A stretch of 64,000 nucleotides of DNA. Source: Octopus vulgaris. Taxonomy: Eukaryota. How positions within the stretch are numbered: the first letter of the stretch is position 1; the number at the start of each line of letters is the position of its first letter. Shown here piece by piece: positions 11,651 to 62,410 of the stretch. The stretch covers positions 3,596,001-3,660,000 of the forward strand of contig OX597819.1 in assembly GCA_951406725.2 (NCBI GenBank), in the 5' to 3' direction. The notes below the pieces were generated by a model that saw nothing but the letters and a program-made list of their open reading frames with translations, made no database searches and was not told where the DNA came from. A program made the translations under genes and the position numbers.

Positions 11651-11767
11651 ATAACTTACAGCTGTTTCAGCCTTATAGATAAAAGTACCTCATTCTACCT
11701 ATATTACTCAAGTAGATTGAGGTAATAGGCAGATGAAAATGAGGTACTAGGCTTCGTCAGAGATTAT
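11651..11767 (-). ncRNA. Type I hammerhead ribozyme motif with long stem II
   Basis: Minus strand: ataatct-CTGACGA-agcc...(85-nt stem II)...ggct-GAAAC-AGCT-GTA^agttat. Confidence 0.8.
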
Positions 11768-11850
11768 AAAGTACAAAAGTTAAGTTATAATAATAAATAT
11801 AAATATAAAATAAACAAAATACACACACATTTGTATATATATATATATAT

Positions 11851-12607
11851 ATACAATAAAAATGGTAAATAATTTTTCAGTGGTTTTTCATATAACCAAC
11901 AATTATTTACCGGTAAATTTCGGTATGTAAATATGACAAATTCATCGTCAGGAACTTTTGTAAAGTTCAGTATATAGTATAAATAATTAAAAGGGCAAGC
12001 AACAGGCTGCTTCGCCGCATACCGAAGGAATTAGAAATGGCAGTCAAAGACTGTTTTTTCCATTTTCTATAAGTGGAGATTCCATATACGATGAACCCCG
12101 CGATTCACATACGCAAAATCGGAGTAGCAAATAAACGAAAACAATCTCTTACCGTTAATAGTGAAAATGTTTCTAGATCACAAGCTCGAAAATAGCTTAA
12201 TTTCCTTCGTCAACACTATATTCGATAGATTTACCAAATGCCACAAGCCCTCACCTCTGACCAAGCGACATCAGATAGTGGGGGGGAAGTGTGCAGATGT
12301 TAAAACTAAGTAATGACTGGGAACGTAAATTCTCCCTCCAAAATTCTGCCATGCGCGCCGTCTGGGTGATCGCAATGGAATAAGAAATCCACATGGTAAT
12401 ACAATAAAAATGGTAAATAATTTTTCAGTGGTTTTTCATATAACCAACAATTATTTACCGGTAAATTTCGGTATGTAAATATGACAATTTCAGCGTCAGG
12501 AACTTTTGTAAAGTTCAGTATATAGTATAAATAATTAAAAGGGCAAGCAACAGGCTGCTTCGCCGCATACCCAGACGGCGCGCATGGCAGAATTTTGGAG
12601 GGAGAAT
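11851..12607 (-). mobile_element. Non-coding partial-tandem element with inverted terminal segment and decayed hammerhead (12158-12219)
   Basis: 173-bp direct repeat 11851-12023 / 12399-12571; 38-bp inverted copy 12329-12366 / 12570-12607; TA-rich flanks. Confidence 0.75.
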
Positions 12608-13169
12608 ACATACATATAAATATACATACATATAAATATGCATAATTAATTATATATACTGAAATATACTATACATACACACCTACATCCATAAGCATAT
12701 ATAATATTCAGTTATTACTAATATTATTATTATTAATATTAGATTAGATGTATTCTGCTATTCACAATAGATAGTGTATAAAATATAAAATATAGAATAT
12801 AGAATAATATATAAACAGATGTTTATGAAAGATACAAAATGAGACAAGAACGCAAAACATCCGGACAGTTAGGTGATACAAACAGGGACAACAAAACATC
12901 TAGATAGACGATACGAAGAAAACAAGGACGGGTCATTCGAAGTTTTCTATCTTCAGTCAAGAAACAGATTATCCTCGCAATTTCGACTGATTATTCTTGA
13001 GATTGCTCCACTCTGGCTATGTATGTATGTATGTATGTATGTATGTATGTATGTATGTATGTATGTATGTATGTATGTGTGTATGTATGTATGTATGTAT
13101 GCATGCATGCATGCATGCATGTATGTATGTATGTATGTATCTATATATCTACATCTATATTTCTATATA

Positions 13170-13698
13170 TCTATCTCTTATATAAAATCCGTTCTGTCTG
13201 TCTGTCTGTGTGTGTGTCTTCTCGGATTTCGGGCATCCTCCATCCGATTACGCTCAAATTTATTATGTAGATACCGACGGTATCAGGGCGTCTTGAAAAA
13301 ATTACAAAACTCTATTTCAGATATTATCGATAAAGCCGTTTTTGTCTTGCTTTTCTTCCGTCAACCAGTACATAACTGCACCTTCCATTTTTTGTTGTTT
13401 ATGTACTGCTTAAAGGCCAAGCTTACTGTTTAAACCATGTTTGTGTTCTCCCAGTCAACAGGTTTATTATTACTGGTACGTTAAACGGTTGCATATTTGT
13501 GTGAATAAAATCGTTTTTCTTTGGAATGGAAAAAAAGTCTATCTTTATTTCTTCTTTTGCTGGTGTCTCAAATTTAGGTTAAATCAGTGTTTCTCAAAGG
13601 GGAGGCCTATGGGACGGTCGGACAAGTTGTTTTGAGAAAATTTGGTTTAAATGTTTGACAACTCAGCACCGTCCATTGGACGGGTGGCGTTTTGCTCG
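13170..13698 (+). mobile_element. Non-autonomous Helitron-like element
   Basis: Start TCTATCTCTTATATAAAA plus (TCTG)n; 3' hairpin ccgtccattggacgg before CTCG|T. Confidence 0.65.
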
Positions 13699-13744
13699 TA
13701 TATATATATATATATATATATATATATATATATATATATATATA

Positions 13745-59265: not shown

Positions 59266-59829
59266 GTGCACACACGCGTGCACACACACATATGTAAAAT
59301 TATTTATGTATATATATATGTTTGGATTTATATATACATATAGCTGGGTACGTACACCTTTTGCTCAGCTTGTAAGTATATATCTAAATTCTGTAGGACT
59401 TTCTTGGTATTCTCTTTCTTTCCATTTTCCTTTTCTCGCTTCCCCTCTCTCGCATTTCTTGGCATTCTGTTTCTTTAATCTCTCTACTTTCCTCTGTTAT
59501 CTCCTTGGTACCCACCCTCTTTCTCTCTCTCCAGTTCCTTCCCTAATTCTTCAGTTCTTCTGCCTCCTTAACTCCCTCTCTCTCTTTCTCTGTTCCTCCC
59601 ACCTGACCGGTGCTTGGCCAAGAGTGATCTTTCTTTCTTGGCTTGACCGCCGCTTGCACAACACCTTGTTTTCCCGTCTCCTGACTTTCATCCATGTTTG
59701 TTGCCGCAAGGCTTCCACTTAATACACCAGCTTCACTTGTCCTTTTAGTCGAAAAACACCTGTTGTTATTCTTGTTGTTTGTATTTGTAATCGTGTAACA
59801 TTCGTAATAAGACTCAGGAGACATAAATA

Positions 59830-60765
59830 TTTTCAAATATAATTGTGTATGAAACACACACGAAGAGAAAAACCACCATGTGGATTTCTTACATGCTAAA
59901 AATGGCGACCGAAGCCTAAAACCACGAAAGAATGTTCTTACATTAAAGTACGTTGAAATTGCACGCGAGCAAGACATTCGAGTGAATGAAATCTAGTAAA
60001 CCTTATACTTATAAGTTTCACTATTACTGACCAAATGAATCAACTAAGATAATTAATTGACTATTTAATCATCTGTAGCTCATCAGTAAGGTCGTTAATT
60101 AAATGCATAAGCATAAGATTGCAATACTTACCGAAAATACAAAGTAAAACACATACGCACTCAGTTCCATGCTCATATATCACGGGATTCATCTAAGAAT
60201 GGCCTCAAAACAACGTTCGACACCAGAGTAGTATAGCAACGAATAAATTGAAACATACATCTGGCTGAAGAATTTAAATATTTAACTTTATAAATATACG
60301 GATAGAAATTATTACATAATTATTTACCAGTGGCTAATATGCGTAATAAGAGTCAGAAGATATATATATATTCAAATATAATAGTGTACGAAACATACAC
60401 GTGGAGAAAACCACCATGTGGTTTTCTTATAGGCTAAAAATGGCAGTCGAAACCTAAAACCACGAAAGAATATTCTTATATTAAAGCACGTTGATGTGTA
60501 CGCGACCAAGACATTCGAGTGAATAAAATGTAGTAAACATACTCTAAGTTTTGCTATTACTGACCAAATAAATCAATCTATAATATAATTAATTGACTAT
60601 TTAATCATCCGAAGCTCATCAGTAAGGTCGCTAATTTAAATGCATAATCATAAAACTGCAATACGTACCGAATATTCTACGGTGGGTTTCGGCTTCGACC
60701 GCCATTTTTAGCATGTAAGAAATCCACATGGTGGCTTTCTCTTCGAGTATGTTTCATACACTATA
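59830..60765 (-). mobile_element. Hammerhead-bearing tandem element (about 535-bp period) with inverted terminal segment
   Basis: Repeat 59830-60140 / 60370-60670; inverted copy of 59845-59925 at 60680-60763; abuts (TA)n. Confidence 0.8.
60000..60092 (-). ncRNA. Type I hammerhead ribozyme motif with long stem II
   Basis: Minus strand: acctta-CTGATGA-gcta...(60 nt)...tagt-GAAAC-TTATAA-GTA^taaggt. Confidence 0.83.
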
Positions 60766-61176
60766 TATATATATATATATATATATATATATATATATAT
60801 ATATATATATATATATATATATATATATATATATATATATATATATATATATATATAATTATTAATGCGGAATATTTATATGATCATATATATATATAAT
60901 TATTAATACCGAAAAAATATTCACAAAAAACACGGCTCATTCGATGCCTTTAATCTTCAGTAAGAACCGGATCATCCTCGCAATTTCGGCTGATTAATCT
61001 TGAGGTGTTTATAAGCTATTTAAGAAACACACAAAATCCATTAGATTCACTTCAACATTTAAATTTAATTTGCCAAAATATTTTCGTCGCTTTGAGACCG
61101 CGACCTGTTCACTGACAAAATTCCGTGCTGCATCTGAGAAAGTAACAGTTAGTTCATGATATATATGTACGTACAT

Positions 61177-61510
61177 ATGTATGTATGTATGTATGTATGT
61201 ATGTATGTATGTATGTATGTATGTATGTATGTATGTATGTATGTATGTATGTATGTATGTATGTATGTATGTATGTATGTATGTATGTATGTATGTATGT
61301 GTGTACATTATGTATGTATGTATGTATGTATGTATGTATGTATGTATGTATGTATGTATGTATTATGTATGTATGTATGTATGTATGTATGTATGTATGT
61401 ATGTATGTATGTATGTATGTATGTATTATGTATGTATGTATGTATGTATGTATGTATGTATGCATGTATGTATGTATGTGTGTGTATGTATGTATGTATG
61501 TATGTATGTG
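61177..61510. repeat. (TATG)n microsatellite
   Basis: Directly visible. Confidence 0.96.
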
Positions 61511-61654
61511 TGTGTACATGTATGTGCGTATGCATAGGTGTACATGCGTATGCATGTGTGCCTGCCTATACGCATGTATATATGTATGTATGTTTATATG
61601 TAAGTATGTACATATCTACTTATGTATGTACTTATGCAATTGTGCTTATGCAAT

Positions 61655-62410
61655 TTTCAATTGGTACCACTCGTACCTAGATTTCGAACATTAATGAATA
61701 AATAAGATGATTTGTTATCCGTGTTCTTCATCAGCAAGGGCGCTAATAATTAACGTATAATTATGGGAGTACATGTCTCATCTTTATACATTATAATTTT
61801 TTAATCCACCGCACAAGCGCAGTTATAGTCGGCTGCAAATAACAATTTTGAAACCTAGTTACGAGTGGTAACTACTGAAATTTTTTTTTATTCTTCATCT
61901 CCTTCGAAGTTACTCTTAACCGTGATTTTGACTTTGATAGTTCCCTTTAGCATGTAAGGTGTCCTGTTAGGGTGTATGAATCTAAACTAATTTTATATGA
62001 AAAATATGTTGTCTATTGACTATTTTATGCATGGTAGCCATGGTAGCCACTGGTAGAAAATTTCTTTAATTTCTCTACCCTATATATATTTTCTTAATAT
62101 GATTTTAGTAATTTTGAAGAAATTTTTATTTACTGCTGACTATTACAGCGCTTGCGCGGTGAATTTGAAAAAATTATAATGTATAAAGATGAGACATGTA
62201 CTCCCATAATTATACGTTAATTATTAGCGTCCTTGCTGATAAAGAACATGGATAACAAATTATCTTATTTGTTCATTAATGTTCGAAACCTAGGTACAAG
62301 TGGTAACTATTGAAAATGTTTTTTTTATTATTTTTCATCCCGTTCGAAATTAATCTTAACCATCGTTTGGACTTTGACTGTTCCTTTTAGCATGTAAGAT
62401 GCCCTGTTAA
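61655..62410. mobile_element. Hammerhead-bearing element with inverted and direct duplications
   Basis: Inverted repeat about 61655-61820 / 62147-62315; direct repeat 61850-61970 / 62285-62410; hammerheads at 61670-61738 (-) and 62232-62300 (+). Confidence 0.8.

Follow-up and report, generated by a model that had tools for sequence, protein, structure and literature searches.

Hammerhead motifs of type I with a long stem II in Hydra-clade Penelope-like elements and ORF-less repeats of Octopus vulgaris

Which elements carry the hammerhead-like motifs scattered through a 64,000-nt stretch of the Octopus vulgaris genome (assembly GCA_951406725.2, contig OX597819.1, positions 3,596,001 to 3,660,000; hereafter the window), and which enzymes copy them? 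A sequence-only reading had listed nine sites, four intact-looking and five decayed, most with an enlarged stem II, and had attributed them to unrelated, non-autonomous retroelements moved by Neptune-type Penelope enzymes. Our analysis points, with good probability, to another arrangement, in which type I hammerheads with an extended stem II occupy the 3′ ends of Hydra-clade Penelope-like elements (PLEs) and ORF-less repeats (lacking open reading frames, ORFs) that are likely copied by Hydra enzymes, with cutting predicted to be weak and confined to dimers. The sites belong to seven dispersed families, A to G, for which first-look searches returned 859 (A), 1195 (B), 57 (C), 114 (D), 499 (E), 479 (F) and 186 (G) candidates, 40 of each being scored.

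All nine sites were recovered where they had been placed (Table 1). They have the type I layout of a CUGANGA and GAAA core, an NUH triplet and three stems with stem I open, with variant cores in families E and G; anatomy and placement agree with hammerheads of the Penelope or retrozyme kind, for which cleavage is predicted. In the four motifs described as intact, stem I, CUGANGA, a stem II region of 42–85 nt, GAAA and GUA were all present, and the cut predicted for family A falls between 11657 and 11656. The stem III letters given for 61670 were wrong: the actual sequence is AUCUAGGU, with a G-U pair, while ACCUAGGU is that of the 62232 copy and the majority form of family D. The label "decayed" suits the individual copies at 12158, 57594, 58963, 60540 and 62232, each with private damage, but not their families, which are living. 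Thus a private G-to-U change disrupts stem III at 12158, where 22/23 family E copies keep ACAUGU, and stem III of the 57594 copy carries a G-to-A change. Odd features of these sites proved to be family-wide: a UUGAYRA core at 12158, a CCGAGGA core with a 14-nt stem II at 58963, and one unpaired base per side of stem II at 12158, 57594 and 58963. Nor are the elements wholly unrelated, as the 60000 and 61670 units are tied by a weak match (E 0.006), and the 61670 and 12158 families have a similar AT-rich hairpin ahead of the far 3′ end. The earlier list was also incomplete, having overlooked short-stem hammerheads at 10643, 36750 and 52403.

Table 1. Positions of hammerhead-bearing elements and their motifs in the window.
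Feature	Position	Strand	Description
Family A element	11460..12830	-	Assigned to a Hydra-clade PLE 3′ end; 5′-truncated; interrupted at an internal TA run by family E
Family A hammerhead	11651..11767	-	Stem I 6 bp with bulge; CUGACGA; 85-nt stem II (96–97 nt in the family); ACAGCUGU; GUA
Family E unit, 548 nt	11851..12600	-	ORF-less; head-to-tail, 1.3 units plus short inverted arm
Family E hammerhead	12158..12219	-	UUGACGA core variant; 33-nt stem II; GUU cut predicted
Family B element	35791..36240	both	Two-armed insertion flanked by TA runs
Family B hammerhead	35825..35915	-	Stem I 6 bp; CUGAUGA; 60-nt stem II; ACAAUUGU; GUA
Family F unit, ~600 nt	57350..57955	+	ORF-less; circularly permuted; ends at TA run
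Family F hammerhead	57594..57677	+	CUGAUGA; 54-nt stem II with C/A mismatch at base; family GUU cut predicted
Family G unit, ~330–350 nt	58790..59250	-	ORF-less; partial tandem
Family G hammerhead	58963..59006	-	14-nt stem II family-wide; ACCAUUGGU; GUC; core damaged in this copy (CCAAGGA)
Family C unit, ~539 nt	59790..60790	-	ORF-less; 1.6 units plus inverted arm at ~60670–60790
Family C hammerhead	60000..60092	-	Stem I 6–7 bp; CUGAUGA; 60-nt stem II; ACUUAUAAGU; GUA
Second family C hammerhead, damaged	60540..60628	-	AAAAC; stems I and III broken
Family D unit, ~460 nt	61650..62460	both	ORF-less; two inverted arms
Family D hammerhead	61670..61738	-	CUGAUGA plus optional A; 42-nt stem II; AUCUAGGU; GUA
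Second family D hammerhead	62232..62300	+	Private core change CUGAUAA (1/32 copies)

The abundance of such motifs was measured with a strict descriptor requiring stem I of at least 5 bp, the core, stem II closed by at least 3 bp, GAAAC and GUH, and leaving the palindromic interior of stem III free. It retrieved three long-stem motifs from the window (11760, 35909 and 60086), compared with one in total from 40 dinucleotide shuffles; the 61734 motif was found only by a looser scan because of its G-U pair. A random genome sample of 40 arbitrary 10-kb stretches (400 kb) contained 11 long and 13 short motifs, while each of ten shuffles gave 0–1 long and no short ones, so that the shuffle comparison proposed with the original list shows motif frequency far above that of shuffled sequence. 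One long match (L214) looks false, and scaling from the remaining 10 to the 2.8-Gb assembly yields ~70,000 intact-looking long-stem motifs (95% range 34,000–129,000), in which the second arm is two to five times the usual length. A wider set of loci totalling 1.47 Mb, in which these elements are over-represented by selection, gave 251 matches in 41 clusters, 30 of them with a stem II region of at least 28 nt (29–109 nt); removal of two doubtful clusters and one variant of family A leaves ~27 distinct families. The proposed palindromic stem III, suited to dimers, is borne out both by the random-sample matches, whose stem III interiors are Watson-Crick at 17/23 positions (p ~6e-6), and by the 30 cluster representatives, 25 of which are fully self-complementary when the best member is chosen per cluster. 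Hairpins arising by chance in AT-rich, fold-back-prone DNA are an extremely unlikely source of these motifs: such sequence pairs easily, and one of the 11 random matches looks false, yet the shuffle controls, the palindrome test, the compensatory changes and the placement in PLE 3′ ends described below all contradict chance.

Standard models miss these folds. No site reached the Rfam RF00163 threshold (34 bits), and only 35825 scored (19.4 bits); families A, C, D, E and G gave zero RF00163 match, and F was covered only by a whole-window scan in which, among the matches listed (150 of 246), there were microsatellite-driven microRNA matches only. Long-stem hammerheads escape detection at Rfam thresholds. 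Targeting of (TA)n, also claimed previously, was upheld: (TA)4 lies within 350 nt downstream of 8/11 random-sample matches, as against 28% of random positions, and within 350 nt of 30/30 family B and 20/30 family A copies, and insertions have fixed 3′ ends at (TA)n.

We assign families A and B, on the motifs of their reading frames, to the 3′ ends of protein-coding PLEs of the Hydra clade. Family B copies continue into a reverse transcriptase (RT) and C-terminal GIY-YIG endonuclease with a CxCX5C linker (CKCRIKSRC), CxxC (CQLC) and CxH (CVH), and no CCHH. Family A was followed by a two-step upstream walk across ~2.5–3 kb rich in A, T and microsatellites, which led to an endonuclease (L291, L295) and an RT (L254, L277) of Hydra type, pieces from several copies giving DKT, CNCRISINC, CLLC and CLH. 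DKT in place of DKG is found in family A and in a young family described below; the family B copies read stop short of that region. The RT of family B is 40% identical to that of the young family, which aligns by eye with Hydra-1_Obim. DKT, the CxCX5C linker, CxxC and CxH, and the lack of CCHH are the published marks of the Hydra clade (PMC8557442). The assignment rests on motifs because Pfam did not recognise the RT and endonuclease pieces of family B and gave the young family a GIY-YIG match below threshold only. An assignment of the family B protein to Naiad, and then to Nematis, was dropped in view of the Hydra marks.

The linkage to autonomous Penelope ORFs that had been suggested as a check therefore exists for A and B and is of the Hydra type. 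The absence of ORFs holds locally, but not for the families at 11651 and 35825, longer copies of which reach RT and endonuclease frames, so the elements cannot all be called non-autonomous: of the seven families, two represent the 3′ termini of elements that encode protein. Two further long-stem families lie directly behind Hydra endonucleases, one (L054) with a 53-nt and the other (L162/L303-332) with a 31-nt stem II. The latter, exemplified by L332:1-1860 (+) with copies on C1–C7, is very young, with 150/150 scored endonuclease matches identical over 120 aa and open frames of up to 717 aa. Of 30 loci fetched, 29 carry this motif with its 31-nt arm and a CCGAWGA core, in which U4C is fixed. 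A first-look search returned 19,918 candidates for Hydra-like endonucleases. An upstream ORF check of 28 further long-stem sites, most of them copies too short to show a link, found one sense ORF directly linked, one inverted piece and one belonging to a neighbour.

That Neptune-type enzymes move all of these elements, as the sequence-only reading proposed, is accordingly very unlikely, and for A and B it is refuted. Neptune-like relics do occur in the genome and the window (37750–39390), Neptune elements prefer microsatellites (PMC8557442), and five of the seven families are ORF-less. Nevertheless, all four ORF-linked long-stem families (A, B, L054 and L162/L303-332) are Hydra-type and none has the Neptune marks (CX2-5CxxC linker, CCHH), Neptune-like copies have a stem II of 12–13 nt, and a short-stem motif closes the relic in the window. 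This relic, on the plus strand, retains an RT thumb, a GIY-YIG domain with internal cysteines and a long CA-rich 3′ untranslated region (UTR), was unrecognised by Pfam, and has a degenerate hammerhead at its end. As a separate observation, multi-kb (TAT)n tracts at L061:3680-7200 and L279:1-1270 adjoin 5′-inverted Hydra copies at the AAT-rich linker coding region, which suggests that Hydra elements seed long trinucleotide arrays.

Families C to G lack coding capacity, and no linked ORF was found at the loci examined. They recur head-to-tail, with one type I hammerhead per unit, at intervals of ~539 (C), 460 (D), 548 (E), ~600 (F) and ~350 nt (G); direct repeats occur in a minority of loci, and arrays of at least four units in family E only. 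These are traits of retrozymes, whose described unit size (~170–400 nt) is matched by G and exceeded by C, D, E and F (460–600 nt), and C to G appear retrozyme-like, with putative circular RNAs. Contigs from four runs of one study, RNA only by guess, cover E and B, and strand, ends and circles are not readable from them. A similar AT-rich hairpin (GGUA...AAUU / AAUU...UACC) stands just ahead of the distal end in four of these families, by pattern match in D and E and by eye in C and F, and is a possible shared signal for the reverse transcriptase. Family E sits in a TA run of a family A 3′ UTR, the parts of A around it being ~11460–11850 and 12600–12830; such nesting is common (also L101, L162 and L173). 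Pieces of Hydra ORFs near D and F loci (L101, L162) are parts of adjacent elements that carry hammerheads of their own, and a 1.95-kb family F array on C9 proved to be a segmental tandem carrying other repeats rather than the F unit. The Hydra enzyme is the likeliest mover of C to G because it represents the active (TA)n-targeting clade linked to such motifs; Neptune or Naiad enzymes are less likely candidates.

Conservation of the fold was assessed in alignments of 16–47 distinct copies per family. Most differences between copies are private decay, but the proposed covariation check yielded a handful of shared compensatory changes in all three stems and the 3-8 pair, with the strongest signal across families. 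In family E, G-C in stem I becomes A-U in 9/23 copies, and the 3-8 core pair is U3-G8 in 8 copies and U3-A8 in 8. A U-A to C-G change in stem III of family C keeps the palindrome (8/29 copies), family A converts A-U to G-C in stem II (7/47), and 2–3/19 family B copies have paired substitutions of this kind in stems I and II. Two-molecule folding gave the full double hammerhead as optimum for C only; for A and D, the predicted structure joined the two molecules through stem III.

Insertions in each family have two preferred 3′ ends, located 35 and 150 nt past the cut in B and 187 and 310 nt past it in E; comparable pairs of ends were seen in the young family and in C, D and F. Among 40 distinct family B loci, 23 are inverted and two-armed, 13 are single arms and 4 are other, and all 23 two-armed loci combine one short with one long end. 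In the window copy of B, the minus arm stops 35 nt past the cut and the plus arm has a 115-nt tail. The pattern in E is like that in B, blurred by tandem units. An anole PLE has two internal RT start sites and an optional tail, which the two ends per octopus family match (PMC11167929).

Several results weigh against the interpretation that we favour. In 30 B and 30 E arms, chosen by sequence downstream of the cut only, the 5′ ends are not gathered at the cut: only 1/30 B arms starts within 2 nt of it, and 0/30 E arms start at it, with 4 within 6 nt (modulo unit). The cut-site footprint suggested by the window B arm, which starts within 1 nt of the cut, was thus not upheld. Two-molecule folding of B, E, F and G produced other pairings and no double hammerhead. 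Many stem pairs are broken in old families (76/688 stem II cells in C), as expected of dead copies, which weakens the covariation; some shared changes also break pairs, 12 in one C pair and 7 in one B pair. Several core deviations are family-wide, as with U4C in G and the young family, and may lower or abolish activity. The ORF link of family A is a chain of overlapping relatives at 70–90% identity, with no single full copy. Family F shows no (TA) excess (16 vs 16 of 25), and no sequence tie was found between C to G and any given Hydra family, so that their mobiliser is only inferred from shared targets and end structure.

Most arms start upstream of the cut and run through an intact motif (23/30 in B, 27/30 in E), and several arms of E are longer than a single unit. 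These scattered starts argue for a template that for the most part is uncut, multimeric or circular, in keeping with the low, dimer-dependent activity of PLE hammerheads (PMC4209133) and the finding that cleavage is dispensable for anole PLE insertion in vitro (PMC11167929). Read-through, cleavage-free insertion and family-wide U4C cores would suit a view in which the folds are real while most families no longer cut, the motif being a structural signal for the RT-endonuclease or a hitch-hiker. We consider this unlikely, since the core, GUH and palindromic stem III are retained in ~27 sequence-unrelated families and the covarying 3-8 pair of family E points to selection on catalysis. In the mechanism we prefer, the GIY-YIG endonuclease would nick both strands of (TA)n, and the RT would start each DNA strand at an internal site of its own, both sites lying 3′ of the ribozyme, so that one arm ends short and the other long. 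The template would be mostly uncut, multimeric or re-circularised RNA. Weak cleavage, predicted to occur only in dimers through the self-complementary stem III, would free unit-length RNA, plus circles in C to G.

The stem II extensions have no sequence in common between families, and in about half of the long-stem families, judged by eye, a basal helix of 3–5 bp is followed by an internal loop and then the extension. Stem II folds better than shuffled sequence to differing degrees (z of -7.0 for A, -4.8 for C, -2.1 for F, -1.6 for B and -1.4 for E), and in the 61670 copy of family D no better (z -0.1). Because arm length varies widely and the arms share no sequence, stem II is most likely a tolerated, freely varying hairpin, in which selection maintains the pairing required to spare the core, and not a sequence-specific site. 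We hold as rather doubtful that it acts as a domain with its own function and marks a separate subclass of hammerheads, the internal loop taking the place of loop 2 and the outer arm either binding the Hydra RT-endonuclease or controlling cleavage of the dimer, so that one enzyme lineage runs tens of families. If that were true, such motifs would escape current descriptors, and hammerhead counts in animals would be large underestimates, including the reported absence from some PLE clades.

Our literature search found no long-stem-II class in animals, with the limit that Lunse et al. 2017, which reportedly treats dimer-cleaving PLE hammerhead variants, Arkhipova et al. 2017 or supplements may hold cases; nor did it find a description of cephalopod retrozymes. 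The octopus ORF-linked families resemble Hydra-clade PLEs further in the order RT then GIY-YIG, (TA)n targets, a type I hammerhead near the 3′ end with palindromic stem III, inverted 5′-truncated arms and frequent mismatches at the stem II base (PMC8557442). They differ in stem II, which is 31–97 nt here, whereas stem II plus loop is at most 24 nt in all 26 Hydra rows of File S2 and 22 nt in octopus Hydra-1_oBim (PMC8557442); the earlier suggestion of an undescribed long-stem-II class is supported in so far as the search above found none for animal elements. The 3′ UTR is 1.35 kb in B and ~2.5–3 kb in A, and tails are 70–170 nt, compared with 30–40 nt in Hydra PLEs (PMC8557442). The nearest precedents are two plant cases flagged as deviating in File S2, spike-moss PLE-X motifs of type I with stem II regions of ~37 and ~53 nt, which belong to an unrelated clade, lack a palindromic dimer stem III and are not discussed as a class in the parts available (PMC8557442).

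With metazoan non-LTR retrozymes (PMC7229834; 10.64898/2026.07.22.740005), families C to G share units that lack ORFs, are joined head-to-tail and contain a single type I hammerhead, occurrence from monomers to multimers, and a proposed PLE origin and mobilisation. Unlike them, C to F have units of 460–600 nt, here read from DNA only, against circles of ~170–400 nt, and a stem II of 33–63 nt, fixed (TA)n ends and two-armed insertions. Minimal PLE hammerheads (PMC4209133) likewise have a dimer-type stem III, an extra base after A9 and a U3-A8 core, but their "larger than usual" helix II is 7–8 bp, within the 6–8 bp that "long helix II" denotes in the literature available, and stem III is longer here, 3–6 bp in the dimer. 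A link to Naiad half-core motifs was considered and set aside: the four window stem III motifs are absent from the available PMC8557442 supplement, the Naiads of this genome not having been searched, and the octopus Naiad consensus end places GAAAC upstream of CUGAUGA, unlike the layout here. PLE-end hammerheads, the dimer-type stem III, retrozymes as PLE dependants, the octopus Hydra clade, the U3-A8 core and stem II base mismatches are all already described; what is new is that dozens of families have an extended stem II and go unnoticed by standard models. If active, the ~70,000 long-arm motifs would be among the densest and most diverse hammerhead populations of any animal genome, and stem II of a dimer-type hammerhead would be able to reach 100 nt. 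For the question of what PLE hammerheads do, one genome offers many natural RNAs to use as substrates, their start sites already mapped, together with naturally occurring core variants and a Hydra enzyme that is young and intact.

Of the short-stem motifs, those at 10643 (-) and 52403 (+) look intact, with a CCGACGA core, and a third, at ~36720–36756 (-) with a UUGACAA core, lies in a 900-nt fold-back insertion (36326–37227) related to a 359-nt tandem family in L205. In the random sample, L205:2300-4560 and L216:8600-9450 hold tandem arrays set in inverted arms; the unit is ~360 nt long, a short-stem type I hammerhead recurs in every unit, and by sequence these arrays look classically retrozyme-like. 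A non-LTR retrotransposon at 4993–8595 (+) has a 943-aa RT frame (Pfam RVT_1, 2e-29) and a C-terminal motif that is presumably a restriction-like endonuclease; a second piece of it, 98% identical, lies at 27157–28615 (-). A degenerate CA/CATA microsatellite field of 2.6 kb occupies 49339–51919.

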